Positions 241 through 42,588 of a DNA stretch of 64,000 nucleotides are shown piece after piece (the stretch's first letter is position 1; the number at the start of each line of letters is the position of its first letter). The position numbers and the translations under genes were made by a program. Source of the stretch: Armatimonadetes bacterium CG2_30_59_28 (lineage in GTDB: Bacteria; Armatimonadota; Abditibacteriia; CG2-30-59-28); contig MNXM01000306.1 in NCBI GenBank assembly GCA_001872605.1, forward strand, positions 6,291 to 70,290. The letters run 5' to 3'. The notes below the pieces were generated by a model. The model made no database searches. It was not told where the DNA came from and saw only the letters and a list, made by a program, of their open reading frames with translations.

Positions 241-583
241 GGATATGGCGAAAGCTGCCATTGAGAGGGAGAACCTGACGTTGCGCGTTCTGGCGCAGGA
301 GTTGCTGCGCGAACACCCTCGACTGAGCGACCTCCCTCGGCCGCAAACAGACGACCCACGGCTGCTGTCAGTGGCGGCCGCTTTGGTTGAGTTGTTTGCC
401 ATGCGTCGCCATCAGGACCCACCGGAATGGACCGAAGCCATCGGCCCTTTGACTGAGCCTTTTTTTCTCCTCAACGCTGCAACCAGCATGCGTCGACTGC
501 GTGCTCTTTGTGAAACGCAGTCACCGGAACCATTGCGAAGACGCAGATTGTACGCTCCGCCCAACTTCCTGGAGTTCGCTTGA
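227..583 (+). CDS. hypothetical protein (start uncertain; track ORF 197..583, in-frame Met at 227 and 245)
   Basis: 128-aa ORF overlapping the previous ORF stop; no recognisable domain. Confidence 0.25.
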   Translation: MVAVEDMAKAAIERENLTLRVLAQELLREHPRLSDLPRPQTDDPRLLSVAAALVELFAMRRHQDPPEWTEAIGPLTEPFFLLNAATSMRRLRALCETQSPEPLRRRRLYAPPNFLEFA

Positions 584-1394
584 ATTGCCAAAGATATCCG
601 TCATTACTCCTACCCGCAATGCCGCCCTTGACTTGTCGGAGACGATCGAGAGCGTCGCCTGCCAGAGCTTCACGGACAGGGAATTCATCGTGGTCGACGG
701 CGGATCGACCGACGGTACGGTTGCACTGCTGCAGCAGCATGGATATGTGATCGACCGCTGGATCAGCGAACCGGACGACGGCGTCTACGATGCCATCAAC
801 AAAGGGATTGACCTTTCCACGGGAGAGTGGCTCTACTTCCTCGGGGCGGGAGACGAACTGGCGGATGAGAGCGTGCTGGAAAGAGTGTGGGAATGCGGAA
901 TGCGGAATGCGGAACGCGGAACGCGTCCCGAGGGATCGGGATCTCCACTCCGCTTCGAGAGTGTGGAACGCGGAGTACACCCGCTGTTCCTATACGGGGA
1001 CGTAATCTGGGGCGAGTCGGGGCAGCGTTACGATGGGCGATTCTCCAAGCTGAAACTGTGCCGGCAGAACATCTGCCACCAGGCGATCTTCTACCACCGA
1101 AGTCTTTTCGACCGGTTCGGCAAGTTCGACACACAATACGAGGTTTGCGCGGACTGGGCGTTCAATCTGAGGTGCTTCGCTGACCCGGTGGTCAGGCCCA
1201 CCCGTCTGAGCACCGTCGTGGCGAGGTTCAAGGGGGGCGGTCTGAGCAGCAGCGTACAGGATGAGTTTCTCGCGAATCGGGAAGGTCTCATCCGGGGGTT
1301 GGGGTGGCGGTATTGGGCGCTGTACCGGGTGAAGCAGGCTCTCAAGTTCAGACGCAGAACCTTTCCGCTGAAACCGACGGACGGCCTCGGATGA
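501..1394 (+). CDS. family 2 glycosyltransferase (true start probably TTG ~585, just before the 'ISVITPTRN' motif)
   Basis: N-terminal GT-A signature ISVITPTRN...FIVVDGGSTDGT...DDGVYDA; the 501 start overlaps the upstream ORF. Contains an in-frame heptanucleotide tandem repeat at 891-925. Confidence 0.75.
   Translation: MLFVKRSHRNHCEDADCTLRPTSWSSLELPKISVITPTRNAALDLSETIESVACQSFTDREFIVVDGGSTDGTVALLQQHGYVIDRWISEPDDGVYDAINKGIDLSTGEWLYFLGAGDELADESVLERVWECGMRNAERGTRPEGSGSPLRFESVERGVHPLFLYGDVIWGESGQRYDGRFSKLKLCRQNICHQAIFYHRSLFDRFGKFDTQYEVCADWAFNLRCFADPVVRPTRLSTVVARFKGGGLSSSVQDEFLANREGLIRGLGWRYWALYRVKQALKFRRRTFPLKPTDGLG
891..925. repeat. heptanucleotide tandem repeat (GAAYGCG)x5 inside the GT2 coding sequence
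   Basis: gaatgcg gaatgcg gaatgcg gaacgcg gaacgcg read directly at 891-925; unit length is not a multiple of 3. Confidence 0.9.
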
Positions 1395-2299
1395 AGCTCT
1401 CAATCATCATTATCTCTTTCAATTCGCTTCAGCTTTTGAGAGAGTGCCTGCGATCTCTTTTTGCTGAACCTGTTGACTTCGATTCCGAGGTCATCGTGGT
1501 CGACAACGCTTCATCCGATGGATCAACCGACATGGTTCGTGCGGAGTTCCCCCAAGTGCAACTGCTCGAGAATTCCGAGAACGTGGGGTTCGCAGCCGCA
1601 AACAACATCGGGGCCGGGCGAGCCAGAGGACAGTTACTGCTTCTGCTGAATTCCGACGCGCAACTGACGATGGGTGCGGTGAAGGAGTTGGTCGCCTTCA
1701 TGGAACGTCAACCGGCGGCGGGTGTATCCGGTCCGCGCTTGACCTACCCCGATGGCGCATGGCAGCCCAACGGGCTGGCTTTCCCCACTTTCTGGAGTTG
1801 GCTGGCCGAAGTCAGCGGTCTGACTTCGCAGTCATCTCCCAAGCGACTTGTCCCCACTCCCGTTGATGTCGTATCTGGTGCGTGCATGATGGTCCGCCGT
1901 GCGGCGTGGGAGGCTCTCGGCGGTTTTGACGATGGCTTCTTCTTCTACTGGGAGGATTACGACTTGTGCCGTCGAATTTGGGCACATGGGTGGGAGGTCT
2001 GGTACTGTCCGCAGGCGCACATTGTACATCTCGCTGGAGGCAGCAGCACGCTGGTTCGCTCGATGACTCGCGATGCGGCATCCGAGAGCACGCTTCGCTA
2101 TTTCCGCAAACACCATTCCCGGTGTGTTCTGCTGGCCGTCCTTGCAGTGTTAGTGCTCCGGGAAATCATGAGAATGGGGCAAGGGATGGTGTCGAGACGT
2201 AAGACCCCACGCCACAACCCTTTCGCGCAACTCTTGAGCCGTTTCGCCGCGGTGCAACGTCTCGAAGCGCCTCACCCCAAGAGGGGGCAAGGTGAATGA
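1391..2299 (+). CDS. family 2 glycosyltransferase (rhamnosyltransferase/WbbL-like)
   Basis: MKLSIIIISFN...VIVVDNASSDGS...; ATGA overlap with upstream stop at 1394. The track ORF start (1304) is a spurious 5' extension. Confidence 0.8.
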   Translation: MKLSIIIISFNSLQLLRECLRSLFAEPVDFDSEVIVVDNASSDGSTDMVRAEFPQVQLLENSENVGFAAANNIGAGRARGQLLLLLNSDAQLTMGAVKELVAFMERQPAAGVSGPRLTYPDGAWQPNGLAFPTFWSWLAEVSGLTSQSSPKRLVPTPVDVVSGACMMVRRAAWEALGGFDDGFFFYWEDYDLCRRIWAHGWEVWYCPQAHIVHLAGGSSTLVRSMTRDAASESTLRYFRKHHSRCVLLAVLAVLVLREIMRMGQGMVSRRKTPRHNPFAQLLSRFAAVQRLEAPHPKRGQGE

Positions 2300-3162
2300 G
2301 ACCGCCGGAGCAAATGCCGCTGACGGCGGCCTACGAGGCCGTCTGGCGCAAGCAGAGCGACTCTGCAAGCGTAGAGTGCCTTCTGTCCCGACGCCGAGAG
2401 CATGCCCGCGACTTGCAGACGTTCTATGGCCGGTGCTTGGGCAGACTTTCTACGTCCTGCCCCAAGTGCTTGGAGGTTGCTTGCGGCACGGCAATTCAGT
2501 CCTACTTTCTCGCTGAAATCGATGGTGTGCAAACCGTCGCACTGGACTTGGTTCCCGCGGCGATTCGGTTTGCCATTCAATTTGCTTCTCACCTCCCGAA
2601 CCGCCCCCGGTTTCTCGTTGGAGACGCCGCCCGGCTTCCTTTTGCAGATCACTCGTTTGACCTCGTCTTTAGTTGTGGCTTTCTCGAGCACTTCACCGAC
2701 CCGATGCCGTTCATAGAAGAGCAGATGCGGGTTCTCACGCCGAAAGGTGTGTTGGTTATTGATGTGCCGCAGAAGTTCAATCCATACACGTTCGTTAAGC
2801 GGTCCCTGATCAGAAAAGGTAAGTGGGAGTATGGTTGGGAAACCGAGTACGCATACGGAGAGTTGCGGACCCTCGGACACAAACTCGGCCTGCGCGTGGT
2901 GGGGCGCGTTGGGTATGGCTACAACTTGCGGAGAGACGGGGGCATCGGTCTGTTGCGCTACCTACCCAGACGGATTGCAGAACGGACGCACGCCGGCCCG
3001 TTCGGACCGCTCTTCTCCAGTCTGGCAAGTGTAGCGGACCAGTTGTGGGCCGGTCCTGAGCAGAGGTGGGGGCACTTGTTTCTTGTGTCCATCGCGGTGG
3101 CTTTCCAGCGTCGGTGCGATATTGATGACCGTGTCGCTGCGGATTTGCCATTCATAAAATGA
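2296..3162 (+). CDS. class I SAM-dependent methyltransferase
   Basis: Rossmann SAM-binding motif LEVACGTA...; 'LVFSCGFLEHF'; 4-bp overlap with the upstream GT2. Confidence 0.7.
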   Translation: MRPPEQMPLTAAYEAVWRKQSDSASVECLLSRRREHARDLQTFYGRCLGRLSTSCPKCLEVACGTAIQSYFLAEIDGVQTVALDLVPAAIRFAIQFASHLPNRPRFLVGDAARLPFADHSFDLVFSCGFLEHFTDPMPFIEEQMRVLTPKGVLVIDVPQKFNPYTFVKRSLIRKGKWEYGWETEYAYGELRTLGHKLGLRVVGRVGYGYNLRRDGGIGLLRYLPRRIAERTHAGPFGPLFSSLASVADQLWAGPEQRWGHLFLVSIAVAFQRRCDIDDRVAADLPFIK

Positions 3163-3571
3163 CGCGTTTCTCTGACGCTCACTACCATCGGTCTTGCCCT
3201 GAGGACGCGCAGTACGCTGGAACATACGAAAGACCAGAATGCGATAGGCAACTGGATCATTGATCGGCCCGAAATGAAAGTGCACGACTGCACCGTTTGT
3301 GTCGTTGAGTTGAGCAATTACCATCAGTTCGGCGATGGCCTTATCAGACCCGATCACGAATGTTGCTTGTCTGCGGACGTGGATTGCACGGAGTTCGGGG
3401 TCAAGGGCAATAGGAAAATCCATAGCCCTTACCGAGCACGGCAAGGGCTATGCGACAACGCTCAACCTTAAGTTCATTTCCGTTGTTCACGATCAAAATC
3501 TGGCGGAATCAGCCGGGAATATCGGGCACTGACACGCATCACGCGTCCTTCTACGCAGGCAATAACGGACG

Positions 3572-3580
3572 CCCCCCCCC
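3572..3580. repeat. C9 homopolymer tract in intergenic region (G6 tract follows at 3594-3599)
   Basis: gcccccccccctcgg ... tccgggggga read directly. Confidence 0.9.
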
Positions 3581-3738
3581 TCGGATTCATTCCGGGGGGA
3601 TTTGGAGGATTGGCTGGTAGAAGAAGCGCAGACCTAACAATCCGCTCCTACGAGTCGCACGACCGAAACGAGTTCGGTGGGATTCCTCCGAACAGTTTTC
3701 GGAGCTGAGCGAACAAGCACTATCACAAATCTGACTTG

Positions 3739-3745
3739 CCCCCCC
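3739..3745. repeat. C7 homopolymer tract in intergenic region
   Basis: ctgacttgcccccccgttcc read directly. Confidence 0.9.
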
Positions 3746-3855
3746 GTTCCTCCAAAAATGCGGATTTCGAAGTGCGGAATGAATCGCATCCTTCCACGCT
3801 GGATTTTCGTCTCGCGTGACGCCGACAGGTTGGTATGGATGATTCCTCCCGTCAA

Positions 3856-3884
3856 TTGACCCCCCCGAAACACGTTGCTATAAT
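3856..3884 (+). promoter_or_regulatory. near-consensus sigma-70 promoter TTGACC-17nt-TATAAT for galT; the spacer begins with a C7 tract (3860-3866)
   Basis: ttgacc(3856-3861) cccccgaaacacgttgc tataat(3879-3884); RBS ggagcg ~8 nt before ATG 3924. Confidence 0.65.
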
Positions 3885-3923
3885 GGGCTTGCTTTTATTC
3901 TTGCATATTGGAGCGGGCGTCTC

Positions 3924-4961
3924 ATGCCTGAATTGCGTAAGGACCCGGTGGTGGATCGGTGGGTCATCATCGCCACGGAGCGGGGTCAGCGACCGTACGA
4001 TTTCAATCCGGAGCAGGTTACCGCGGGGACCGGTTTCTGCCCTTTCTGTGAGGGCAATGAGAACAAAACCCCTCCAGAAGTCTGGGCCATTCGCAGCTCG
4101 GGAAGCGCCCCAAACTCGCCCGGATGGCAGATAAGGGTGATCCCCAACAAGTTCCCCGCACTGGCGATCGAGGGAGAGCTCAACCGGCAGGGACTGGGAA
4201 TGTTCGACATGATGAACGGCGTCGGCGCTCACGAGATCATCGTCGAGTCGCCGGACCACGGCTGGAAGGTATCTGATGCCTCTGAAAGCAAGCTGTTCGA
4301 TATATTCCGGAGCTACCGAGAGCGCATTACTGACCTGCAGAAGGACACGCGTTTCCGGTATTGCATGGTCTTCCGCAACTACGGCGCGGCCGCGGGAGCC
4401 TCGCTCGCTCATCCGCATTCGCAACTGATTGCGTTGGCGATTACGCCAAAGCGTGTGAAGGAAGAGCTCCATTCCGCCAAGGAGTGGTACCATGAGAAAG
4501 AGCGGTGCATCTTCTGCGACGTGATTCGACAGGAGTTGGTCATGGGAGACCGGGTTGTTTTGGACAATGAGCATTTCGTCGTTCTTTCACCCTTTGCCGC
4601 TCGATTCCCATTCGAGCTGGCGATATACCCCAAACGCCACTGTCACGATTTCACCTTGATGGGAGACGACGAGAGGCGCAGTCTGGCAGGAACTCTCAGG
4701 GAGACCTTGAAGCGCATTGCGGTTACGTTGCAGGACCCTCCCTACAACTACATTCTGCACACCTGCCCCAATACCACGCATGGAACCGGACCGACGCGCG
4801 TGAACTACTGGCTAACTCTGGAGCACGACTTCCACTGGCACCTTGAGATTGTGCCGAGGTTAACACGAATAGCCGGTTTTGAGTGGGGAACCGGATTCTA
4901 CATCAATCCCGTTGCTCCGGAGAATTCGACTCGATTTCTCCGGGAGGCCGAGCTGGAATGA
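3924..4961 (+). CDS. galT: galactose-1-phosphate uridylyltransferase (type 1 GalT, HIT superfamily)
   Basis: Zinc motif FCPFCEGNE; active-site HPH in 'GASLAHPHSQLIA'; ~345 aa is typical. Confidence 0.8.
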   Translation: MPELRKDPVVDRWVIIATERGQRPYDFNPEQVTAGTGFCPFCEGNENKTPPEVWAIRSSGSAPNSPGWQIRVIPNKFPALAIEGELNRQGLGMFDMMNGVGAHEIIVESPDHGWKVSDASESKLFDIFRSYRERITDLQKDTRFRYCMVFRNYGAAAGASLAHPHSQLIALAITPKRVKEELHSAKEWYHEKERCIFCDVIRQELVMGDRVVLDNEHFVVLSPFAARFPFELAIYPKRHCHDFTLMGDDERRSLAGTLRETLKRIAVTLQDPPYNYILHTCPNTTHGTGPTRVNYWLTLEHDFHWHLEIVPRLTRIAGFEWGTGFYINPVAPENSTRFLREAELE

Positions 4962-5003
4962 ACCGCCTGAGGGACGACAAGACGACTGGCACAGGTTGAC
5001 ATC

Positions 5004-7412
5004 ATGGACAACGCTACGGACTACGTAACAGAACTCGGTGAGAGCGGAATCGATCCCGGGGCTCACGCTCAACTCCTCGACTACCTGAAGCAACTCGAGG
5101 CGAACCTGGAGCGGCGGTCAGAAGAATTATCCGCGTTGCAGCGACGGTACAAGGAGCTTTTCGAGGCGGAGCAAAAGAAAACGCAAGAGCTTGCGATGCT
5201 GGCAGAAATCGGGGAAGGCGCGCTCGCCCATCACAACGTTGACGACTACATCCACGCTGCGGTAACGGCAATGCAACGGAATTTCAACTACTTCGATGTT
5301 GCTCTCTTTCTCGTCGATCAAAGCGCGAACGAGGTGGCGCTTCAGAGTCAGTCCGGCGGGTACTGCAGGGCCGCGCAGGAGGGTTACCGTCAATCCCTTG
5401 ATGTCGGTATCGTCGGCTGGGCGGCCACGACCGGAGAAGCGCTGCTCTCCAACAACGTGAAGGAAGAGCCGCGGTTCTACTGCGCCTTTCCGGAAGAGCA
5501 GCGGACGCAATCCGAGCTGTCGGTGCCGATTAAAATTGGTAACATCGTGAGAGGCGTAATCGATGTCCAAAGCCAGAAAGAGAACGCCTTCGCCTCCCGA
5601 GACGTGAGCGTTCTGCAAACGGTCGCCGACCAGATGGCCACGGCCATCGAGAATGCGCAGTTGTACGAGCAAATGGTGCTTCTAAAAAGATTTAGCGAAA
5701 CGATTGTGGCTTCCTTGCCTTCCGCCGTTTTAGTGGTGGATCGAGAATTGAGGCTTGTGCTCGCGAATCGGATATTCTGTGAGGAGGTGGGATCCGAAGA
5801 AGACGAGATCCGTGGGCAGCCCCTCGAAAGTATTCTCAGCCCCGTTCTGCTGCACGATGCAGGACTGCTGGACGCGATTCGCCAGACCATTGAAAGCGGC
5901 CAACCGCTCTGGCTTGGGGACGTAGCCTACCTTTGTGGAACCGGTGAGGAGTGCGTGGCGGATGTCCGTCTGACCCCGCTCGGGACATCGAATGAGGGCC
6001 GGTTACTGATTACCATCCGTGATGTCACGCAGCGAGCTCGACAGATCGCCCAGTTGTCGTTGTTGCACGACATGGGGGGACTCCTGCAGCGGTCACTGGA
6101 TCGGGATAGGCTGCTCTACACTCTGTTGACTTGTATCACGGCCGGCCCGGCTCTTGGGTTCAACCGGGGTTTTGTGTTGCTGCCGGATGAGCAGGGGGAG
6201 AACCTGCGAGGAGAGATGGCCGTGGGGCCGGTCACGGTTGAGGAGGCGCATCGCATCTGGGCGGAAGTCGGGAAGCGACACCGCGGACTCCAGGACCTCG
6301 TGGAGGCCTTCGCTCCTGAACAGATCGAGATGACGGATATTCAGCGACTGGTTTGCGGGATGCGTTTCTCGTTGAAGGAGTCGCCCTCAGCGATCCTCTC
6401 CCGCGTGATGCGGGAGAGCACAACCTTCAGAGTGGCCACCGACGCGGTGCGGCGTGACCTGTGTTACCCATACGGAGACGTCCTGCGAACGCAGGAGTTT
6501 GCCGCGGCGCCTCTCATTGCAGGGAGCCGAATCCTGGGGGTTGTGCTCGCGGATAATGCTTTCAACCAGGAACCGATTGTGGAAGAGGATCTGAAGCTGC
6601 TGACGACGCTCTGTAACCAGGCCGGTCTCGCTATATCCAACGCCATCGCTCACGCGCAGATTGAGGATCATGCCGATGAACTGGCGAAAGCCTACCAACG
6701 ACTGCGGGAGGCGCACCAGGAGCTTGTGCGGCAGGAGAAACTCGTAACCGTTGGAGAGATGGCAGCACGCGTGAGTCATGAAATCCGCAATCCCCTCGCC
6801 ACCATCGGAGGATTTGCCCGGTCGATGCTCAAGAACCCAGACGACGTAAGTCGCGTTAAGAGCGATGCCAGCATCATCGTCGAAGAGGTTGAGGAGTTGG
6901 AGGGGATCTTGGGGAACATGCTCGACCTAACACGTCCCAGCGGGCCCGCGTGTCGGTTGGAAAACGTTAACTCCATCGTGGAACATGCCTGCCTGATGGC
7001 GCGATCCGACTTCCAGAAATACCCCGTCTCGCTGGTGAAGCAACTGGACGACTACCTGCCGGAAGTCTTTGTGGATGCCCGCCAGATACAGCAGGGGTTG
7101 CTGAATGTTATTCGGAATGGACTCCAGGCGATGCCCGAAGGAGGTGAGTTGACGGTGGCTACGGCGTCCGAGGAAGACGGCGTTGTTGTCAGTATCACGG
7201 ACCATGGCGAGGGAATTCCGCCGGATGTCAGGGACAATATCTTTACTCCGTTCTACACCACCAAGGTGCAGGGAACCGGACTCGGGCTGGCCGTGACCAG
7301 AAAGATTATGGACGATCACCACGGCACTATCGAGGCGCAAAGTGAAGAAGGAGTTGGAACGACGTTCATCCTGAAAGTGCCCTACACGCAACCAGTCGAG
7401 GGAACGCCATAG
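5004..7412 (+). CDS. multidomain sensor histidine kinase (GAF-PAS-GAF-HisKA-HATPase_c)
   Basis: H-box HEIRNPLATIGGFARSM; N box LLNVIRNGLQAM; G boxes DHGEGIP / GTGLGLAVTRKIM. Long N-terminal region with GAF- and PAS-like segments. Confidence 0.85.
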   Translation: MDNATDYVTELGESGIDPGAHAQLLDYLKQLEANLERRSEELSALQRRYKELFEAEQKKTQELAMLAEIGEGALAHHNVDDYIHAAVTAMQRNFNYFDVALFLVDQSANEVALQSQSGGYCRAAQEGYRQSLDVGIVGWAATTGEALLSNNVKEEPRFYCAFPEEQRTQSELSVPIKIGNIVRGVIDVQSQKENAFASRDVSVLQTVADQMATAIENAQLYEQMVLLKRFSETIVASLPSAVLVVDRELRLVLANRIFCEEVGSEEDEIRGQPLESILSPVLLHDAGLLDAIRQTIESGQPLWLGDVAYLCGTGEECVADVRLTPLGTSNEGRLLITIRDVTQRARQIAQLSLLHDMGGLLQRSLDRDRLLYTLLTCITAGPALGFNRGFVLLPDEQGENLRGEMAVGPVTVEEAHRIWAEVGKRHRGLQDLVEAFAPEQIEMTDIQRLVCGMRFSLKESPSAILSRVMRESTTFRVATDAVRRDLCYPYGDVLRTQEFAAAPLIAGSRILGVVLADNAFNQEPIVEEDLKLLTTLCNQAGLAISNAIAHAQIEDHADELAKAYQRLREAHQELVRQEKLVTVGEMAARVSHEIRNPLATIGGFARSMLKNPDDVSRVKSDASIIVEEVEELEGILGNMLDLTRPSGPACRLENVNSIVEHACLMARSDFQKYPVSLVKQLDDYLPEVFVDARQIQQGLLNVIRNGLQAMPEGGELTVATASEEDGVVVSITDHGEGIPPDVRDNIFTPFYTTKVQGTGLGLAVTRKIMDDHHGTIEAQSEEGVGTTFILKVPYTQPVEGTP

Positions 7413-7439
7413 AACTGCGGCTCAAGAGAGCGACCGTCC

Positions 7440-7868
7440 ATGCAATGGAGTGGAAGACGGGTGGGAGACACATACTTCAAGGGAGATGATGCTACCGTGA
7501 AGACAGTTCTGGTGGTCGAGGACCACAAGCACGAGCGTATCCTGTATGAACGTGAGTTGACAGCAGAGGGTTACCGCGTGATTCTGGCTGAGAACGGGAG
7601 GGAAGCGCTCCAAAAGACCCAGGAAGAGCGACCGGATGCGGTGGTGCTGGACATCAACATGCCTCAGATGGATGGTCTTGAGGCGCTGGGAAGGATCCTG
7701 GAAGCGCACCACAAGACACCGGTAATCATCAACACGGCCTACTCCAGCTACAAAGGAAGCTTCATGAGCTGGGCCGCCGACGCTTACGTTATCAAGTCCT
7801 CGGATTTGACCGAGTTGAAGGATCGACTCAGAGAGGCCCTGTCCAGAGGCGAAACGGAAGGTGTGTGA
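7440..7868 (+). CDS. single-domain response regulator (CheY-like receiver); likely GTG start ~7497 with GGGAGA RBS
   Basis: VKTVLVVEDHKHER...DAVVLDINMPQMDGLE...; phospho-acceptor Asp context; no output domain. Confidence 0.8.
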   Translation: MQWSGRRVGDTYFKGDDATVKTVLVVEDHKHERILYERELTAEGYRVILAENGREALQKTQEERPDAVVLDINMPQMDGLEALGRILEAHHKTPVIINTAYSSYKGSFMSWAADAYVIKSSDLTELKDRLREALSRGETEGV

Positions 7869-9123
7869 TTTATTGGCCCCAGTGAGCACACGTCAGTTAC
7901 TCAAAGAAACCATAGCGATGGTTCTGGCAGGTGGGCAGGGCGAACGTCTCCATCCTCTGACAAAAGACCGCGCCAAACCCGCGGTGCCTTTTGGGGGCAT
8001 CTATCGTCTCATCGACTTCACTCTGTCAAACTGCCTCAATTCCGGTATCCGCAAGATCAACGTTCTAACGCAATACAAGTCCTACTCGCTGGCGCGCCAC
8101 TTGAGGATGGGATGGAGTGTCTTCAACAGCGAGCTGAACGAATTCCTGGAGGTGATCCCTCCGCAGCAGCGTTACACCGAGCGCTGGTATCAGGGAACAG
8201 CCGACGCGATTTTTCAGAATATTTACTCACTGGAATTGGAACGTCCCCGGCTCGTGCTGATTCTTTCGGGGGACCACATCTACAAGATGGACTATCGGGA
8301 GTTGATCCGCGCCCATCGAGACAAGGAAGCAGGATTGACCGTCGCGTGCGTGGAGGCCCCGGTGAACGACGCGCGCAGGTTGGGTGTGGCCCAGGTGGAC
8401 AACGACAGTCGCATTACCGGCTTCCAGGAGAAGCCCCTCAACCCGCAGCCTATGCCAGGCGACCCCGAGCATTGTCTCGCCTCGATGGGTGTGTACCTCT
8501 TTGACTGCGGGGTGCTTGTGCAGCGCGTGATCGAGGATATGAAAACCGACAGCGACCACGACTTCGGGAAGAACATCATCCCTCGAATGATTGAGACCGA
8601 TCGTGTCTACGCATGGAACTTTAAAGACGAGAACCGAAAGACCGTCAAGTACTGGAGGGACATTGGCACGCTGGACAGCTATTACGACGCCAACATGGAT
8701 CTGGTGCAGATCGACCCGCTCTTCAATTTGTATGACGAGGGGTGGCCGGTCCGCACGTACCAGCATCAGCGTCCTCCGGCCAAGACGGCCTTCGAGGAAC
8801 CGGGCACAGGCAGGACGGGAAACGTGTTCAACTCAATCATGTCGAGCGGTTGCATTGTTTCGGGTGCGACGGTTCGTCGCTCCATCCTTTCGCCCAGCGT
8901 GTTTGTTCATAGCTACGCAACCATTGAGGACTCCATTCTGATGGAGAATGTGGAGGTTCATCGTCATGCCCGCATCCGACGCGCCATTATTGACAAGCAA
9001 GTCGCCATCCCCGAGGAAGAGGAGATCGGGTACAACTCCGACATCGACAGGAAGCGTTTTACCGTCACCGAGTCCGGTCTTGTCGTCATTCCCAAGGGCA
9101 TGTCGTTGAGGAACACTCCGTGA
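7861..9123 (+). CDS. glgC: glucose-1-phosphate adenylyltransferase (ADP-glucose pyrophosphorylase)
   Basis: MVLAGGQGERLHPLTKDRAKPAVPFGGIYRLIDFTLSNCLNSGI closely matches the GlgC N-terminus. Alternative start at 7918. Confidence 0.85.
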   Translation: MCDLLAPVSTRQLLKETIAMVLAGGQGERLHPLTKDRAKPAVPFGGIYRLIDFTLSNCLNSGIRKINVLTQYKSYSLARHLRMGWSVFNSELNEFLEVIPPQQRYTERWYQGTADAIFQNIYSLELERPRLVLILSGDHIYKMDYRELIRAHRDKEAGLTVACVEAPVNDARRLGVAQVDNDSRITGFQEKPLNPQPMPGDPEHCLASMGVYLFDCGVLVQRVIEDMKTDSDHDFGKNIIPRMIETDRVYAWNFKDENRKTVKYWRDIGTLDSYYDANMDLVQIDPLFNLYDEGWPVRTYQHQRPPAKTAFEEPGTGRTGNVFNSIMSSGCIVSGATVRRSILSPSVFVHSYATIEDSILMENVEVHRHARIRRAIIDKQVAIPEEEEIGYNSDIDRKRFTVTESGLVVIPKGMSLRNTP

Positions 9124-9193
9124 CACCCCTCCTGACGCACTCGGAGCTCTGCCCTGATTCATAGCTACGGCGCAGTATTGACACGTTTCCCGC

Positions 9194-9223
9194 TTGACCG
9201 ACGCCCCATTCATTGCATATACT
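9194..9223 (+). promoter_or_regulatory. candidate sigma-70 promoter TTGACC-18nt-TATACT upstream of the sigma/GGDEF gene
   Basis: ttgacc(9194-9199) gacgccccattcattgca tatact(9218-9223). Confidence 0.4.
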
Positions 9224-9297
9224 CCTGAAAGAAACGTCGAGCGCAGAAAGCTCCGGAAGCCGAAGACACCGGCGCTCGACAACATTGGTTCAGGTCG

Positions 9298-10626
9298 ATG
9301 AGGAGTAGCGCCTTGGCCCGTCGCTCGATGATCCAAGCCACGACGGCAACAAACGTCAGCGCCGTCAACCGATTCGGGGAGTATGTTGAGACGCGCGACC
9401 CGGCGTTGCGCGACGAACTTGTCCTTGAGCATCTGACGCTGGTCGAGAAGCTGTCACGACGATACGCCAATCTGGGAGAGCCTCTGGAGGATCTCGTCCA
9501 GGAAGGCTACATTGGTCTGATCAAAGCCGTCGATCAGTTCAACCCGAAGATGAGCGTGAAGTTTACGACGTATGCGACCCACGTGGTCTCCGGCGAGATT
9601 CGGCACTACCTTCGCGACCTTGGCAGATTGATCAAGGAACCCGCGTGGCTGGTTGAGTTGCGGTTCCGGGTCAACCGTTCCGCGGATGAATTGTCCCAGC
9701 GACTGGGACGTTCCCCCACCGCCGAGGAGATTGCTGAGGAGCTGGGCATCCCGGAAGAGGACGTTGCCGAGGTGGCAACAACCCGAACGATTTTTCAGGT
9801 GGCGTCGCTGGACGCAGGTAGTCCCTCGGACGATGGCGACGATTCCATCTCTGCCATCGCCGAACGCATCGCGGACGTCCGTGAGGGGTTCGCTACCCCG
9901 CTGGAGGAGAGAATGGTTCTGCGCCAGGCAGTCCGCAGGCTGCGGAAGCTGGAGCGCTCCGTTATCTATCATTTCTTCTATCAGGAGCATACCAAAACAG
10001 AGATCGCGCGCAAGCTGGACATCTCCGTCAATTACGTGTCCTACCTGATCGGACGGGGATTGAATAACATGAAACAGATGCTGATTCGGGAAGAACGAAA
10101 CGAAGCCGTGCTGAGGCTTGAATTCATGGAGGCCCGCCTGACAGCCGAAGAGGGGCAGCTCGACGATTCGGCGATGGTTGATGAAACCACTGGACTTTAC
10201 TGCCGTGCCTTCTTCGAGCGGCTGCTACAGGACGAGGTGGCGCGGGCGAGGCGGTACGAGATTGAGTTCTCCTTCATCGTTCTTGTCGTCAGGGAATGGG
10301 CGCCGCTTGTGGAAAAGGTCACGGAAAGGGAGAAGGAAAAGCTTCTGCAACGTCTCGCGGATCTGCTGAAGAGGTCGCTTCGGGACGTCGACCGCATATC
10401 CTACTACGGTCAGGGCCGATTTGGCGCTATTCTTCCACACACTGGAGCGAACGCGGACGTCGTCTCAAAGCGAATATTGAGCCAGTTGCAGGGACATGAC
10501 ATCCGACCCCCGCGGCTGAAGTCAATCCCGCCGCCACACCTCGTGTGCAACGTCTACGCTTATCCCAAAGATGCCGCGACGGCAGAAGAGTTGATCGCCC
10601 TCCTGGAAGAGACTGACCGATCGTAG
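9298..10626 (+). CDS. RNA polymerase sigma factor (SigB/F/G-type, sigma-70 group 3) fused to a C-terminal degenerate GGDEF-like domain
   Basis: Region 2 'DLVQEGYIGLIKAVDQFNP...FTTYATHVVSGEIRHYLRD'; region 4 HTH 'TKTEIARKLDISVNYVSYLIGRGLNNMKQ'. C-terminus 'DETTGLYCRAFFERLL...RDVDRISYYGQGRFGAILPHT' aligns to the GGDEF fold with GGEEF replaced by GQGRF. Confidence 0.65.
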   Translation: MRSSALARRSMIQATTATNVSAVNRFGEYVETRDPALRDELVLEHLTLVEKLSRRYANLGEPLEDLVQEGYIGLIKAVDQFNPKMSVKFTTYATHVVSGEIRHYLRDLGRLIKEPAWLVELRFRVNRSADELSQRLGRSPTAEEIAEELGIPEEDVAEVATTRTIFQVASLDAGSPSDDGDDSISAIAERIADVREGFATPLEERMVLRQAVRRLRKLERSVIYHFFYQEHTKTEIARKLDISVNYVSYLIGRGLNNMKQMLIREERNEAVLRLEFMEARLTAEEGQLDDSAMVDETTGLYCRAFFERLLQDEVARARRYEIEFSFIVLVVREWAPLVEKVTEREKEKLLQRLADLLKRSLRDVDRISYYGQGRFGAILPHTGANADVVSKRILSQLQGHDIRPPRLKSIPPPHLVCNVYAYPKDAATAEELIALLEETDRS

Positions 10627-10730
10627 AGGAAGCCAATGGCCACGGGGCCCGATTGTCGCCACCCGGTTTGCGTGACCGATTGCTCGGATATTCCCCGATC
10701 TGACGAGGGAGTCTGGAGGACTCATCAGCT

Positions 10731-12164
10731 ATGCTTGTATACAATACGCTCCACCGCACGAAGGAAGAGTTTGTCCCGCGAGAGATCGGGAAAGTCTCCA
10801 TGTACGTCTGCGGCGTGACGCCCTATGACGCGCTGCACCTGGGGCATGTGAGGACTTTCCTCTCCTACGACATGATCCGTCGCTATCTGGAGCGACTCGG
10901 TTACGAGGTGCGCCACGTCCAGAACGTGACCGATATCGATGACAAGATCATCAACCGCGCCAAGCAGTTGGGGGTGGATCCTCTGGATCTTGCGAGAAAA
11001 TACTCCGACGAGGCCCTTCAGGACTGCGACGCTCTCGGCATGCGGCGCGCACACGAGTACCCGCGTGTCTCCGTTCACATGCCGGAGATTCTGGAGATGA
11101 TCCAGTCACTGGTGCAGAAGCGAGCAGCCTATGTGCGGGATGGCAGCGTGTACTTCGATGTCAGTCGGTTCCCCGACTACGGTCAACTCTCCCATCAAAA
11201 CACCGCGGAGATGCAATCGAGCGGGAGGATTGAGGTCGACGGAAGTAAGGATGACCCCCTCGATTTTGCTCTCTGGAAATCCTCCAAGCCGGACGAACCT
11301 CGTTGGGACAGTCCGTGGGGTCCGGGCCGCCCGGGGTGGCATGTCGAGTGCTCCGCTATGTCCCTCAAATACCTTCAGAATGGGTTCGACATCCATGGAG
11401 GCGCCGTTGAGCTGCAGTTCCCGCATCATGAAAACGAGGTGGCCCAGTCGGAAGCCTACACAGGTTCTCCCCCCTTTGTGCGTTACTGGTTGCATGGAGG
11501 CGTGGTGTTTGTCGATGGCAAGAAGATGGCCAAATCCCTCGGAAACTTCATCACCGTTCAGGAAATCCTGAAGCAGGCCACTCCTGATGCGTTGAGAATG
11601 ATGTTCTACTCCACGCACTACCGTAGTCCTTTTGACTACTCGGCGTCCAGACTCGAAGAAGCGAAGGCGGCCTGGGAACGGATGCAACTGGGAATGTTGA
11701 ACCTACGCCGGGATCTCGGCAGGGAGACGAGAAGCGACGGCAGCCCCGCTGCCTCCGGCTATTTGGCGGACCGAGCGGAAGATGCGGAGCGGAAATTCGG
11801 GCGCGCGATGGGTGACGACTTCAATACCCCCATTGCTCTGGCGGCGCTCTTTGACCTTGTGTCTGAGGCGAACAAGTACCTCGCCGAAACCGCTCCATCT
11901 CCGTCCCGCTCTGCAGAAGCGGCAGCAGCTTTCATCGCCCTGGAGCGTTCTCTGTTGGTATTGGGGTTTGCCGTGGTCGAGGGCGAAGGCAAACATGGGG
12001 AAGATCAGACGGCCCTGCTGCTCGATCTGTTGGTGGAAATTCGTGAGAAGGCGAGAGAAGACAAGCAATTCCAGCTTGCTGACGCTATTCGGGCGCGCCT
12101 CCACGAGATGGAAATTGTTCTGGAGGACCATCCGGATGGAACGACTTGGCGCCGAAAGAACTAA
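10731..12164 (+). CDS. cysS: cysteine--tRNA ligase
   Basis: HIGH motif 'LHLGHVRT'; KMSKS motif 'KMAKSLGN'; zinc-binding Cys; 477 aa. Confidence 0.9.
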
Positions 12165-13770
12165 AACAGACGCTCCGCGCCCGACGGCTGCACTGCCCCG
12201 TCGCGTCGCTATTGCTTGCGGACTATCAAGACGCCGACGTCCCTTACTGACTTTCGGTTGCTTCGTTGTGGCGCTGGCGGCCGTTCTGGGAGGATATGTA
12301 TCCAGGAGCGGTCCGAGTCGGGCAAAGTACATTCTCGGTGGGGTGCGGGTGCGGTCCATCGAGGTGGGGGGGCTGAACCCAACCGAGGCAAAGAGTCGAC
12401 TCGAGTCGTCGCTGCCGACCCCGTCCAAGGCGGAGGTCGAATTCGTCGAGGACGCGCGCCGTTTCGCTGCAGCTTGGCCAGACCTCGGCATCGGGTACGA
12501 CTATGAGGCGACCATTGCGAACGCGGTGGCTGTCGGTCGGCGAGAACCGCTGACCTCACGGCTGCGGGATCGCTTCGCCCTGATGACCCGGGGTATCACC
12601 GTCCCCGTTCAATACTCGTGCAATACGGACGCGACCGAAGCCTGGTTCACCGCTCTTGCCGCCGAGATTGACGAAGAACCCATTGATGCAGGGGCCACAT
12701 GGCGCAACGGTGGCATTGAACTCACCCCCGGGAAGGAAGGCCGCAAGCTGGATGTCAAAGGGATGACGACGGCATTGATCAACCACAGCAAGCGGGGGCG
12801 TGTGCCCAAGCAGATGGCCATTGCCATGCGCCCATCCCCACCGCGCGTGCGCCGAGCTGATCTTGCCACTCTTGAGACGGTGATCAGTCGGTACTCGACT
12901 CCTTTCAACCCCGCGAGAAAGAGCCGGACCCAGAATATGAAACTGGCCGTTCAGTCTATCGATGGGGAACTGATTCGCCCGGGGGAGACCTTCTCCTATA
13001 ACCGGTGTGTGGGCCCCCGGCTGGAGAGGTATGGCTATCTGCCGGCTCCCATATTTTCCGATGACGAGGTCGTCCAGGGAGTTGGCGGTGGAATCTGTCA
13101 GGTCGCCACGACTATCTACAATACCGCCCTGTTTTCGGGGATCGAAATAGTGACTCGATCACACCACAGCCGTCCCATCGACTACGCCCCGAGAGGCCGG
13201 GACGCCACCGTGTATTTCGGGAATACCGACCTGAGATTTCGGAACAACACCTCTCTGCCGATCTATATCCGCGTCTACATTGGCGGGAGTCGTGTCTACT
13301 GCGATTTTTACGGCAGTAAATCGCAGGAGAAGAAGGTCTCCTTGCAGTGTACCGAGGACGTTCGTGTGGAACCGATCGAGGAACGGACGGACGACCCGGG
13401 AATCCCTGAAGGGGAAGAAGTTGTGGATGACGAAGGTCGTCCTGGATTCCGGACGACGATAGTGCGGACTATAGGACCCTCGGGACCTGCGGGAAGGGAA
13501 CGGCGGGAAGTCGTTTCCAGGGACTTCTACCGTCCACGAACGCGCAAAATCCGGGTGGGAACTTCCCCGGCAACGACGGCCATGCCTTCTGATGGCTCGG
13601 TGAAGCTGCCACCATCTTCCCATTATGGAACGGCCCAATCGGGGTCGACAGGCTCTCCAACGGCGCCGAAGCTGCCGGGAGCAGGAGGCAAACCAGTTCC
13701 ACGGAAGGCGCCCAAATCCCCGGGATTGCGTGTTGAGGACCTTGGCAGTCCCTCGCCCCCACATCGTTGA
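12136..13770 (+). CDS. VanW family protein with signal-anchor, G5-like region and Pro/Ser-rich C-terminal tail
   Basis: VanW core 'GETFSYNRCVGPR...GGGICQVATTIYNTALFSGIEIVTRSHHS...DATVY'. The track ORF 11782..13770 is a 5' extension overlapping cysS; first Met after the cysS frame is at 12136 (29-bp overlap with cysS). Confidence 0.75.
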   Translation: MERLGAERTKTDAPRPTAALPRRVAIACGLSRRRRPLLTFGCFVVALAAVLGGYVSRSGPSRAKYILGGVRVRSIEVGGLNPTEAKSRLESSLPTPSKAEVEFVEDARRFAAAWPDLGIGYDYEATIANAVAVGRREPLTSRLRDRFALMTRGITVPVQYSCNTDATEAWFTALAAEIDEEPIDAGATWRNGGIELTPGKEGRKLDVKGMTTALINHSKRGRVPKQMAIAMRPSPPRVRRADLATLETVISRYSTPFNPARKSRTQNMKLAVQSIDGELIRPGETFSYNRCVGPRLERYGYLPAPIFSDDEVVQGVGGGICQVATTIYNTALFSGIEIVTRSHHSRPIDYAPRGRDATVYFGNTDLRFRNNTSLPIYIRVYIGGSRVYCDFYGSKSQEKKVSLQCTEDVRVEPIEERTDDPGIPEGEEVVDDEGRPGFRTTIVRTIGPSGPAGRERREVVSRDFYRPRTRKIRVGTSPATTAMPSDGSVKLPPSSHYGTAQSGSTGSPTAPKLPGAGGKPVPRKAPKSPGLRVEDLGSPSPPHR

Positions 13771-14046
13771 CCGGCACCAAATGCGTTCCCAATATCGGGG
13801 GATTCCCCCCGACGGCGGTTTGACTTTCTACTACGCGCTCATTATAATCACCGATGTCAACTGGAATTCGTGCCAAAGGGCCGGGGGGCCCGAGGGGAGG
13901 TGCTGCCAGCTAAACAGCGTCAATGGTTTCGGCCCGGAATGACGTACTGAGGTCAAAGCCGATCAACAGAGCAACGTCACAATAGAACATTATACCCGGC
14001 GCGCCCTGCGAAGGCGTGCAGAACTCAGCAAAGGAGAAATAGAAAT

Positions 14047-14784
14047 ATGGCGCCAAAAATGCTCTTGATAGCGCTGGCCATTTCCCTGACAGCCGGCGCG
14101 GTCCTCGCTGACCCGAACTTCTACGGGCAGACAGGACTCACCCTCAACCCCACCGCTGACATTGCAGAACCTGATGAAATTCAGGCCCGGCTGTCGACGA
14201 TGAATCAGGACACAGCGCTCCTGGACGGCAAGTGGTGGGCGGTTTCAGGCAATGGGATCGTGTCGGAGAAGCTGGAGTTGTCCCTCGGATACGTGAACCA
14301 GTCCGACGTTCTCGTAGATGACTCTGGCATCACGGCAGGACTCAAGTACTCGCTGCAGCCGGAAAACGAGAAATCACCCGCGATTGCTCTTGGGGGGATA
14401 TGGGTCAGTTCCATGGACCAGACCGGCGCTTACCTTGTTCTCAGCAAGACGTTAAGCATTGGTGAGGAGAAGATGGGGAAACAGCCCAAGAAAGTGCGTG
14501 GACATTTGGGAATTCGATGGGACGAGTTTTCAGGCGCGGCGGACGAGTCGGACGTGACCGTCTTCGGAGGCCTGAATGCCGGTCTGGGCACCAGCTTGTC
14601 CTTCGAGGGAGAAGTGGGAACCCGGCATAACGTTCAGGCAGAGACCCCCTGGGCTGCGCTGCTCAAGTACCAGATTACCCGTAAGACCTGCGTGAGCGCT
14701 GGGATGGTTCAGACGGGATTTAGTGACGACCCGGAATTCATCATCAGCTTGGGGCAGGTATGGCCCAATCTGGAGATGAAGTAG
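14047..14784 (+). CDS. hypothetical secreted protein (signal peptide)
   Basis: MAPKMLLIALAISLTAGAVLA signal peptide; AGGAGA RBS 7 nt upstream; no recognisable catalytic motif. Confidence 0.5.
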   Translation: MAPKMLLIALAISLTAGAVLADPNFYGQTGLTLNPTADIAEPDEIQARLSTMNQDTALLDGKWWAVSGNGIVSEKLELSLGYVNQSDVLVDDSGITAGLKYSLQPENEKSPAIALGGIWVSSMDQTGAYLVLSKTLSIGEEKMGKQPKKVRGHLGIRWDEFSGAADESDVTVFGGLNAGLGTSLSFEGEVGTRHNVQAETPWAALLKYQITRKTCVSAGMVQTGFSDDPEFIISLGQVWPNLEMK

Positions 14785-14815: not shown

Positions 14816-15934
14816 GTGGATTCCCGGAAGTCAGCGATGCTGAATCTCTGGCCGATCCGAGTCCCACGCCCTTCTGTTTTCTCGCTCAACCTGCCACGAG
14901 AGATGGTCAGCAGTATGCGATATGGTGGAATGCGTCGAGGTCCCATGGCGCCGACCCTCGTCTGGACGGCAACGTTTGCTTGCTTTGTTGCCAGTGCTGG
15001 ATACGTCCAACCACAGGAGACCTCCGTTGACGAATGGAACCGTAACTGGCGTTACTATGCCTCCGTGCGAATTCGGTGCCAATCCTACGATTTTGACGCT
15101 GAAATCGACGCCGATTTCACACGCATTCTCAAGGAGTATCGGGTCCCCGGCACCTTCGATCGACGCTCAATCCGCATCTGCGAAGCAGGTCTGAGTGATG
15201 GCTCCGCACCTGAAGTGCCGTTCGCATTTTCGCCAAATCCCGATTTTGATCCCACCTTCAACGCTCGCGGCAAATTGCAATTCCGCGTGACGCGTGGGGT
15301 TTCAGACCGCACGTTCCATGTCTACTTTGACCTCCTCGAGAACGGCGAGAAACCGCTCGTATCTTACGGCGCTCCGCAGGCGAGCGGGAACTGGCTGAGC
15401 AACGGGAGTTTTGAGGATCTGGATGCCAAGACTTCGTCGCTTGTCGACTGGCCATTCGAGCGCAGGAATGCAGTCAAGGCTGTCACGGGGGCAGCCCGCA
15501 CCGGAACCGTATCTGTGCAGCTCCTTTCCCCCAAGTCAGGACAGGCCGCCAGTCTGGGCATTCCCGGCAATGGCGCGTTTCGGGTGGTTTCGGGGGAGAA
15601 GTATCGGTTGTCGTTCTGGTCGCGAGGGGAAGACACGAACGACCGGCCGCTGCTGGTTACCGCCTACTGGTATGATCTGTCAAGAAAGTATTCCGGGCAT
15701 GAGTTGATGGCCGAGGAGGGGCGGAGCCATTGGGATTGGAGCGTGTTCTCTGGGAACCTTGTCGCTCCCCCGGAAGCTGAATGGCTGAGGTTCTACATCG
15801 CGACTTACACGACCAGCGGGGGGGTCTGGATCGACGACGTTTGCCTGACCCCCGAGAAGCTTCCCCGGCTTTCAGACTTGACGATTATTGAGCACAATCT
15901 GGCACCGGTAATTGTTGTGGAACCCAACGAGTAG
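14816..15934 (+). CDS. hypothetical secreted protein with carbohydrate-binding-module-like C-terminal region; true start probably internal Met 14903-14930
   Basis: Internal 'MRRGPMAPTLVWTATFACFVASA' looks like a signal peptide; 'GNWLSNGSFEDLD...VSVQL...' resembles CBM4/9-type beta-sandwich modules. Confidence 0.45.
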   Translation: MDSRKSAMLNLWPIRVPRPSVFSLNLPREMVSSMRYGGMRRGPMAPTLVWTATFACFVASAGYVQPQETSVDEWNRNWRYYASVRIRCQSYDFDAEIDADFTRILKEYRVPGTFDRRSIRICEAGLSDGSAPEVPFAFSPNPDFDPTFNARGKLQFRVTRGVSDRTFHVYFDLLENGEKPLVSYGAPQASGNWLSNGSFEDLDAKTSSLVDWPFERRNAVKAVTGAARTGTVSVQLLSPKSGQAASLGIPGNGAFRVVSGEKYRLSFWSRGEDTNDRPLLVTAYWYDLSRKYSGHELMAEEGRSHWDWSVFSGNLVAPPEAEWLRFYIATYTTSGGVWIDDVCLTPEKLPRLSDLTIIEHNLAPVIVVEPNE

Positions 15935-42572: not shown

Positions 42573-42588
42573 CGGGGTAGGAGCTGCA

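Follow-up and report, generated by a model that had tools for sequence, protein, structure and literature searches.

In the known routes from cyclic di-GMP (c-di-GMP) to transcription, the intermediary is a DNA-binding regulator, a riboswitch or, in actinomycetes, an anti-sigma factor. In the last case, c-di-GMP controls the sigma factor sigma-WhiG via RsiG, which sequesters it (PMC10519070), and a further source (PMC13232838) likewise speaks of c-di-GMP-dependent sequestration of the sigma factor in the RsiG system. Here, we analyzed a gene of Armatimonadetes bacterium CG2_30_59_28 (assembly GCA_001872605.1) that encodes a sigma factor and a degenerate GGDEF domain as one polypeptide. It is located on the plus strand of a 64,000-nt stretch of contig MNXM01000306.1 (contig positions 6,291 to 70,290; hereafter the window, to which coordinates refer unless another locus is named), at positions 9298..10626. 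We propose, with a probability of roughly 55%, that its product is a group-3 sigma factor carrying a C-terminal dead-cyclase domain that acts as a c-di-GMP receptor and regulates the attached sigma part in cis, without a distinct anti-sigma protein. A built-in receptor is suggested because the GGDEF-fold domain is predicted to be no longer catalytic yet keeps the pocket of the allosteric inhibitory site (I-site).

Several described systems bear on this proposal. PopA and PelD bind c-di-GMP through a retained RxxD motif of the I-site, and domains of cyclases become immobilised when an intercalated c-di-GMP dimer connects the RxxD/R390 site with an arginine of a different domain. Among sigma factors, members of the extracytoplasmic function (ECF) class with C-terminal extensions (ECF41 and ECF42) carry a regulatory domain on the sigma polypeptide that replaces a separate anti-sigma factor. 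Partner-switching regulators (an RsbW/SpoIIAB-type kinase and a STAS antagonist) encoded alongside the sigma gene are typical of group 3, but do not strictly define it. PopA and PelD have both been classified as GGDEF-domain c-di-GMP receptors (PMC10519070), and the cyanobacterial group-3 sigma factor SigF drives pilA1, its loss increasing exopolysaccharide (PMC7690835).

Loss of the catalytic site and conservation of the I-site

The sigma-GGDEF gene is an uninterrupted open reading frame (ORF) of 442 codons, delimited by the ORF list, by Pfam matches and by homologues of the same length and architecture. An earlier sequence-only reading of this stretch had placed sigma-70 regions 2, 3 and 4 and a GGDEF domain on one 442-aa polypeptide, and all of these domains were indeed recovered above the Pfam cut-offs. 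It had also raised the possibility that GGDEF homology would lack support from domain searches, which was not the case: the GGDEF-like domain (PF00990; residues 292-434; 10171..10599, plus strand) was matched over profile positions 1-145 of 161 with an E value of 1.9e-12 and 47.7 bits (gathering score, 23.8). The best PDB sequence matches of the domain are 3IGN, 6ZXM and 6D9M (E values down to 9e-10). Here, the query segment R362-D-V-D365-R-I-S-Y-Y-G371-Q-G-R-F375 aligns to RQSDSAGRYGGEEF of 3IGN and RKSDIISRFGGEEF of 6ZXM; the GQGRF sequence (residues 371-375) falls on the GGEEF of the solved cyclases, and R362-D-V-D365 falls on the I-site RxxD.

For residue-level comparison, 194 family members were aligned with PleD as a ruler sequence, which was verified against 1W25/2WB4. 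Not one of the 194 has an intact GG[DE]EF motif, and the columns of the catalytic-loop remnant (G371-Q-G-R-F375, equivalent to PleD G368-F372; 10408..10422, plus strand) are highly variable. The metal-binding D327 of PleD is replaced by V330 in the query and is D in 21% of the family, whereas the guanine-binding N335 corresponds to V338 in the query, at a position where N is not among the five commonest residues and the commonest is D (17%). The second guanine-binding residue, D344, corresponds to E347 (D in 60% and E in 19% of the family, i.e., acidic in ~79%). The phosphate-binding K442/R446 belong to a C-terminal helix that is truncated in the query, lies outside its Pfam match and is gapped or variable in the family. 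Thus, the replacement of GG(D/E)EF by GQGRF and the loss of the metal-binding Asp, first noticed in the query by the sequence-only reading, hold in the structure alignments and at V330. Its prediction of catalytic inactivity extends, at the level of sequence, to the whole family, in which the catalytic site is destroyed in every member, with metal and guanine ligands lost as well as the motif.

The I-site presents the opposite picture. The RxxD motif (R362-D-V-D365, equivalent to PleD R359/D362; 10381..10392, plus strand) was found in 194/194 members, separated from the former active-site loop by five residues (D365 to G371). The primary I-site arginine R392 (PleD R390; 10471..10473, plus strand) is R in 100% of the 194 sequences and the secondary I-site arginine R316 (PleD R313; 10243..10245, plus strand) in 99%. 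Mean pairwise identity of the GGDEF-like domain across the family is only 0.33, versus 0.67 for sigma region 2 and 0.61 for region 4. In a 58-sequence alignment, seven of its ~142 columns are invariant (D295, E313, R316, R319, R362, D365 and R392), and a rough hypergeometric estimate of the chance that the three primary I-site positions would all be among these seven is ~7e-5. A dead active site (A-site) combined with an invariant I-site is the signature that would be expected if the c-di-GMP pocket, rather than catalysis, were the reason for which the domain has been retained. The earlier suggestion of a ligand-sensing module for c-di-GMP or GTP can accordingly be divided. The c-di-GMP option is strongly favoured because RxxD and its partner arginines are invariant across the 194 members, and GTP sensing is not supported because the guanine, metal and phosphate residues of the A-site are unconserved. 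Binding of c-di-GMP to the I-site is therefore considered probable.

An exhaustive search of representatives with the C-terminal domain (10081-10623, 181 aa) returned 16,921 matches, among which its similarity to most family members did not exceed that to generic GGDEF domains. A word-indexed search with the same 181 aa gave zero matches, even though a 100%-identical full-length protein is present in the database, which looks like a gap in the sensitivity of the word index to this query. The background frequency of RxxD and of the R390- and R313-type arginines in unrelated GGDEF domains was also considered as a control. It was discarded because the available matches (94/95 with RxxD) had been preselected by their similarity to a query that carries those residues.

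The sigma factor part and the predicted structure

Sigma regions 2, 3 and 4 occur in order. Region 2 (Sigma70_r2, PF04542; residues 41-110; 9418..9627, plus strand), responsible for core binding and -10 recognition, was matched with an E value of 9.7e-18, and is followed by region 3 (Sigma70_r3, PF04539; residues 121-178; 9658..9831, plus strand; E value 1.2e-14) and by the helix-turn-helix of region 4 (Sigma70_r4/r4_2, PF04545/PF08281; residues 206-259; 9913..10074, plus strand; E values 7e-8 and 3.4e-9). Invariant columns in region 2 are D65, Q68, E69, G70, G73, L74, F89, T91, Y92, A93, T94, H95, G99, H103, R106 and D107. The recognition helix of region 4 bears the family signature I-S-x-N-Y-V-S, and T234, I236, A237, I242, S243, N245 and Y246 are invariant in this region. 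Core RNA polymerase binding and promoter-specific initiation are predicted for the sigma part because these residues of regions 2 and 4 are invariant and because its structural matches include sigma factors in holoenzyme complexes.

With regard to classification, the top NCBIfam model is TIGR02980 (SigB/SigF/SigG) with 185.9 bits, under the curated cut-off of 234.35, followed by the SigF model NF005644 with 154.9 bits (cut-off, 261); the SigB, SigF and SigG equivalog models all score under their cut-offs. The likeness to group-3 stress and sporulation sigma factors seen by the sequence-only reading is therefore upheld by the best model. Since the TIGR02980 and equivalog scores remain below the cut-offs, the sigma part appears to be a divergent group-3 (SigB/SigF/SigG-like) sigma factor, a relative of this subfamily rather than a curated member.

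Public gene calls within the 90%-identity cluster of this protein are 442, 437 and 432 aa long, lengths that starts at ATG 9298, TTG 9313 and ATG 9328 would fit, and the start codon is thus ambiguous. The cluster includes metagenome-assembled genomes (MAGs) from Crystal Geyser groundwater, e.g., OIO90029.1 (Armatimonadetes bacterium CG2_30_59_28), whose entries carry no annotation beyond 'hypothetical protein' or 'sigma-70 family RNA polymerase sigma factor'. Proteins of the wider family likewise stand in public databases under generic names, including 'RNA polymerase sigma-B factor'.

With the 58-sequence alignment as input, AlphaFold2 gave a model with a mean predicted local distance difference test score (pLDDT) of 83 and a predicted template modelling score (pTM) of 0.48. 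The sigma-2, sigma-3 and sigma-4 bundles are modelled confidently, as is the alpha/beta GGDEF fold at residues 293-438 (pLDDT mostly 87-96), and the acidic segment 165-200 after region 3 is disordered (pLDDT below 50). One long helix (residues 244-284) starts inside sigma-4 and leads into the tether, with a pLDDT of 59 at 281-290. Foldseek searches against the PDB matched the N-terminal part to sigma-S, Staphylococcus aureus SigB, FliA/FlgM and sigma-WhiG in the RsiG-c-di-GMP complex, and the C-terminal part to Geobacter and Idiomarina cyclases (6D9M and 5LLX among the matches). The linker between the two parts (residues 260-292; 10075..10173, plus strand) consists of an amphipathic helix continuing the last sigma-4 helix and then a variable, gappy tether; its family identity is 0.27, with gaps up to 36% and an amphipathic periodicity of ~3.67. 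A coiled coil was considered for this segment and rejected on the basis of this periodicity, the lack of a clear heptad and the gappy distal part.

Distribution and ancestry of the fusion

A protein homologue search over 5.8 billion proteins gave 765 matches, of which the best 120 were inspected. All 120 contain the same five Pfam domains at ~440 aa, and those with source names belong to MAGs of Armatimonadota, Abditibacteriales or Capsulimonadaceae. A total of 194 distinct homologues of full length (~440 aa) were found in independent assemblies, some of them on contigs of 3-5 Mb. In addition, one genome per GTDB species was scanned with two patterns, one of them the region 4 signature I-S-x-N-Y-V-S, and 563 related stretches were confirmed by tblastn. 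The best 80 of these 563 loci were analyzed, and were assigned to Chthonomonadales, Fimbriimonadales, Abditibacteriales, Capsulimonadaceae, Armatimonadales and 'Zipacnadia', or to MAGs labelled only 'bacterium'. A full-length uninterrupted ORF was found in 77 of the 80, the remaining three having no ORF that spans the match.

Because the same uninterrupted architecture recurs across independent assemblies, an assembly artefact is excluded, and the fusion is conserved as a single polypeptide across Armatimonadota. The concern of the sequence-only reading that two genes might have been joined by mis-assembly near 10100-10150 is thereby dispelled, and the related genomes in which it had proposed to look for the same fusion do contain it. 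Moreover, a neighbor-joining tree of the family proteins broadly tracks the taxonomic labels, which points to an old and mostly vertically inherited gene. The architecture had not been recognised as a described one, and our full-text literature search found no earlier description of it either, which, as the coverage was incomplete, is absence of evidence only. The fusion is thus a phylum-wide and apparently undescribed combination of known modules.

Type IV pilus linkage and other loci

A T2SSF (PilC) platform protein is encoded immediately ahead of the sigma-GGDEF gene, in the same orientation, in 34 of the 73 analyzable loci. PilT- and PilB-type ATPases and a secretin precede T2SSF in these pilus loci, and the PilB protein carries an MshEN domain. 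In locus L081, situated on a 5.4-Mb contig, the precomputed annotation gives, all on one strand, PilM, PilN, PilO, two unassigned genes, MshEN-T2SSE, T2SSE, T2SSF and the sigma-GGDEF gene. The gaps between pilC and the sigma gene are mostly shorter than 100 nt and contain a GGAG-type ribosome-binding site, and co-transcription of the two genes is likely. Just upstream of the ribosome-binding site, the direct repeat CCGGCATG...N12...CCGGCATG was observed in the pilC-sigma gap of L015, L034, L024 and L026, four loci so closely related that the repeat may merely reflect their relatedness. The pilus linkage recurs in several clades of the neighbor-joining tree and is absent from the Chthonomonadales clades.

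A survey of the immediate neighbors on either side in the related loci covered 132 flanking ORFs matched to 79 families. T2SSF accounts for 32 of these 132 ORFs and every other family for at most 3. Neither STAS nor HATPase_c_2 (the RsbW-type kinase family) is among the 25 commonest of the 79 families, and among the immediate neighbors partner-switching anti-sigma genes are thus not conserved beside the sigma-GGDEF gene.

Two further observations in these loci concern c-di-GMP. MshEN is a domain family known to bind this nucleotide, and PilB-type ATPases with an N-terminal MshEN domain (L006, 1583-3337; L081, 5467-7188) are encoded in clusters that end in the sigma-GGDEF gene; because of this domain, the pilus cluster may have two c-di-GMP inputs. 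In L058, from an Armatimonadota MAG, a CBS-GGDEF protein with an intact active-site motif (11185-12765, plus strand) is encoded immediately downstream of the sigma-GGDEF gene and represents a candidate cyclase adjoining the predicted receptor.

Neighborhood and candidate promoter in the window

The window contains neither pil genes nor a second copy of the sigma factor or of a GGDEF domain, and the anti-sigma partner families STAS and HATPase_c_2 are absent among its genes flanking the sigma-GGDEF gene. Upstream on the same strand are a GalT-like gene, a GAF-PAS-HisKA-HATPase histidine kinase (5004-7412), a stand-alone single-domain receiver (7440-7868) and a GlgC-like nucleotidyltransferase (7861-9123) with a GTG start and an 8-nt overlap with the receiver end. 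Downstream are cysS (10731-12164) and a VanW/G5 protein. The ORF of the latter (VanW/PG_binding_4/G5; 11782-13770, plus strand) begins inside cysS; since its Pfam domains begin only at residue 234, the true start probably lies well downstream of 11782. The order GalT-like, kinase, receiver, GlgC-like, sigma, CysS and VanW is common only to the window and L001. A conserved functional tie of the sigma factor to the adjacent two-component pair was rejected because this synteny is limited to L001, the closest relative.

Around the sigma gene extends a very large surface-glycan region (500-4960 and 14800-56500, on both strands). It encodes more than a dozen GT2/GT4/GT9 glycosyltransferases, GDP-mannose 4,6-dehydratase, epimerases, three DegT aminotransferases, NeuB (nonulosonic acid synthase), a sulfotransferase, several methyltransferases, PMT-like and DUF2079 membrane proteins and an ABC transporter ATPase. 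Seven ORFs of 223-762 aa, several of them within the glycan cluster, had no Pfam match at the thresholds used (14047-14784, 14816-15934, 40875-43163, 43995-45155, 47027-48178, 59997-61763 and 62068-62739).

A candidate sigma-70-type promoter noted by the sequence-only reading is present upstream of the gene (9194..9223, plus strand). It consists of TTGACC (9194-9199), an 18-nt spacer and TATACT (9218-9223), ends 75 nt ahead of ATG 9298 and matches the consensus at 10/12 positions in a consensus scan. On its own it is not significant, with 0.6 such sites expected in the stretch; both hexamers recur, as TTGACC-17-TATACT, before the 64%-identical orthologue in L001, in otherwise diverged DNA. A family-wide sigma-70-type promoter upstream of the gene was no better supported than in shuffled sequence. 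It seems that in the lineage of the window the sigma-GGDEF gene has left the pilus cluster and has its own housekeeping-type candidate promoter and glycan surroundings.

Discussion

The observation made by the sequence-only reading is confirmed, and its interpretation is supported and sharpened. What this analysis adds to it is the conserved I-site, the phylum-wide distribution and the link to type IV pilus genes. In the mechanism that we propose, c-di-GMP, probably as an intercalated dimer, would bind RxxD and R392 and bridge to R316 of a second molecule or, alternatively, to a surface of the sigma domains. As there is no catalysis to inhibit here, such a cross-link would act on the sigma moiety: it would alter the amount of sigma free for core RNA polymerase, and the GGDEF-like domain would substitute for an anti-sigma factor in cis. 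For control of the sigma factor in cis by the fused domain we see slightly better than even odds, a lower confidence than for ligand binding. The regulon would likely comprise type IV pilus and cell-surface genes, a view based on the gene context and on the cyanobacterial SigF precedent. High c-di-GMP might lock the protein in an inactive, cross-linked form and turn the regulon down. This direction is a guess drawn from product inhibition in PleD and WspR and from the c-di-GMP-armed RsiG that sequesters sigma-WhiG; it fits a motile-to-sessile logic, and we would sooner expect it to be wrong than right.

Several results weigh against this proposal, as does the guesswork about its direction. The SigB/F-type promoter GTTT-N12-17-GGGTA has 0 occurrences in the window versus 0.86 expected, a de novo dyad search in the intergenic DNA of 81 loci returned only GC-rich noise, and alignment of the pilC-sigma intergenic regions revealed the ribosome-binding site but no shared promoter. 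The clade of the window itself lacks the pilus linkage. At the position equivalent to PleD R366, R in 93% of the family, this protein has a tyrosine (Y369), as do a few relatives. Furthermore, ordinary GGDEF domains commonly contain arginines of the R313 and R390 types, and the R313-type arginine is conserved in most GGDEF domains, together with an ExxRxxR helix. In ~1.1 Mb of related loci, the L058 CBS-GGDEF protein was the sole further GGDEF protein seen, and the capacity of the carrier genomes to make c-di-GMP is putative. On the structural side, the relative placement of the domains was not reliably predicted, because of the low pTM (0.48). The linker, judged by the missing heptad and the variable, gappy distal part, appears to be a tether rather than a coiled coil, so that dimerisation through it finds no support in the sequence.

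The conserved Arg and Asp residues could also be kept for structural or protein-contact reasons, in which case the GGDEF-like domain would be a ligand-free dimerisation, docking or localisation module, for instance a tether between the sigma factor and the pilus machinery, an active cyclase or some other protein. Degenerate GGDEF domains are known as protein-interaction modules, examples of which are reportedly to be found in an E. coli interactome paper. The general conservation of the R313-type arginine and the ExxRxxR helix speaks in the same direction, and the position beside pilB, pilT and pilC would likewise be compatible with physical attachment to the pilus motor. Such a module would explain poorly, however, why RxxD and R392 are invariant while the rest of the domain drifts (33% identity). 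The RxxD motif is dispensable for the GGDEF fold, and many active cyclases exist without it. We regard a ligand-free role as improbable, if still the explanation most deserving of attention after c-di-GMP binding.

It is less probable again that the domain recognises another nucleotide, either GTP, bound at what is left of the active site as in the degenerate GGDEF domain with which Caulobacter PdeA senses GTP, or a different cyclic dinucleotide at the I-site. The acidic residue kept at the D344 position in ~79% of members would suit the former, and I-site-like pockets could in principle accommodate related dinucleotides. GTP is disfavoured by the equivalents of N335 and D327, both V in the query and unconserved in the family, by the hypervariable GGEEF loop and by the K442/R446 helix, which is gapped or variable and outside the Pfam match. 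A fusion produced by mis-assembly or by a frameshift joining two genes, or an active cyclase with an unusual motif, is highly unlikely: nothing was found in favour of either, the architecture is uninterrupted in 194 distinct sequences from many independent assemblies, and GG[DE]EF is present in no member, with the metal and guanine ligands lost.

If the proposed c-di-GMP receptor function is correct, the phylum Armatimonadota would have a one-protein switch from c-di-GMP to the transcription of type IV pilus and cell-surface genes. Compared with the described routes, this would be a new and shorter one, in which c-di-GMP acts on RNA polymerase specificity in a single step. We suggest, tentatively and at somewhat less than even odds, that this is the first sigma factor to be itself a c-di-GMP receptor, the ligand gating holoenzyme formation or promoter use without an anti-sigma factor. 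The family would also illustrate cleanly how a cyclase domain can be pared down in nature to its allosteric site. Moreover, it would offer a first point of entry into signalling and pilus regulation in Armatimonadota, of which very few members have been cultured and for which molecular genetics hardly exists.

Among known systems, the RsiG/sigma-WhiG/c-di-GMP complex of Streptomyces (6PFJ, 6PFV) is similar in that the availability of a group-3 sigma factor is set by c-di-GMP, and sigma-WhiG is among the Foldseek matches to the sigma part described here. The ligand of that complex is bound jointly by the sigma factor and by two E(X)3S(X)2R(X)3Q(X)3D helices of a distinct anti-sigma protein. In the present family, on the other hand, the presumed binding site is the GGDEF I-site on the same polypeptide, and no anti-sigma gene is conserved among the immediate neighbors. 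Because the E(X)3S(X)2R(X)3Q(X)3D motif was found neither in the protein nor in the six frames of window positions 5000-14000, this is not an RsiG-type system. The ECF41 and ECF42 factors differ in another way: they belong to group 4, lack region 3 and carry SnoaL-like or TPR extensions, with no second-messenger receptor; the presence of region 3 (E value 1.2e-14) excludes the present protein from this class of extended ECF factors. Cyanobacterial SigF belongs to the same SigB/F/G group, and its role in pilA1 expression and exopolysaccharide agrees with the family's pilus linkage and with the glycan surroundings of the gene in the window, but SigF has no C-terminal sensor domain, and the protein scores below the NF005644 cut-off.

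With regard to the GGDEF-like domain, PleD, WspR and DgcR offer the mechanistic template of product inhibition at the I-site; PleD R359, D362, R390 and R313 all have their counterparts here, and DgcR (6ZXM) is among the best sequence matches of the domain. These three are, however, active cyclases regulated by their own product. Closer in this respect are PopA of Caulobacter and PelD of Pseudomonas, in which an inactive GGDEF domain serves as the receptor. The same pattern of a dead A-site and an invariant I-site is found here, with RxxD at the right spacing and the partner arginines R392 and R316, as is characteristic of this receptor class. The outputs of PopA (a proteolysis adaptor) and PelD (Pel polysaccharide synthesis) are different, and neither is fused to a sigma factor or acts directly on RNA polymerase. 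Judged from its sequence, the protein resembles a merger of such a degenerate-GGDEF c-di-GMP receptor with a group-3 sigma factor.

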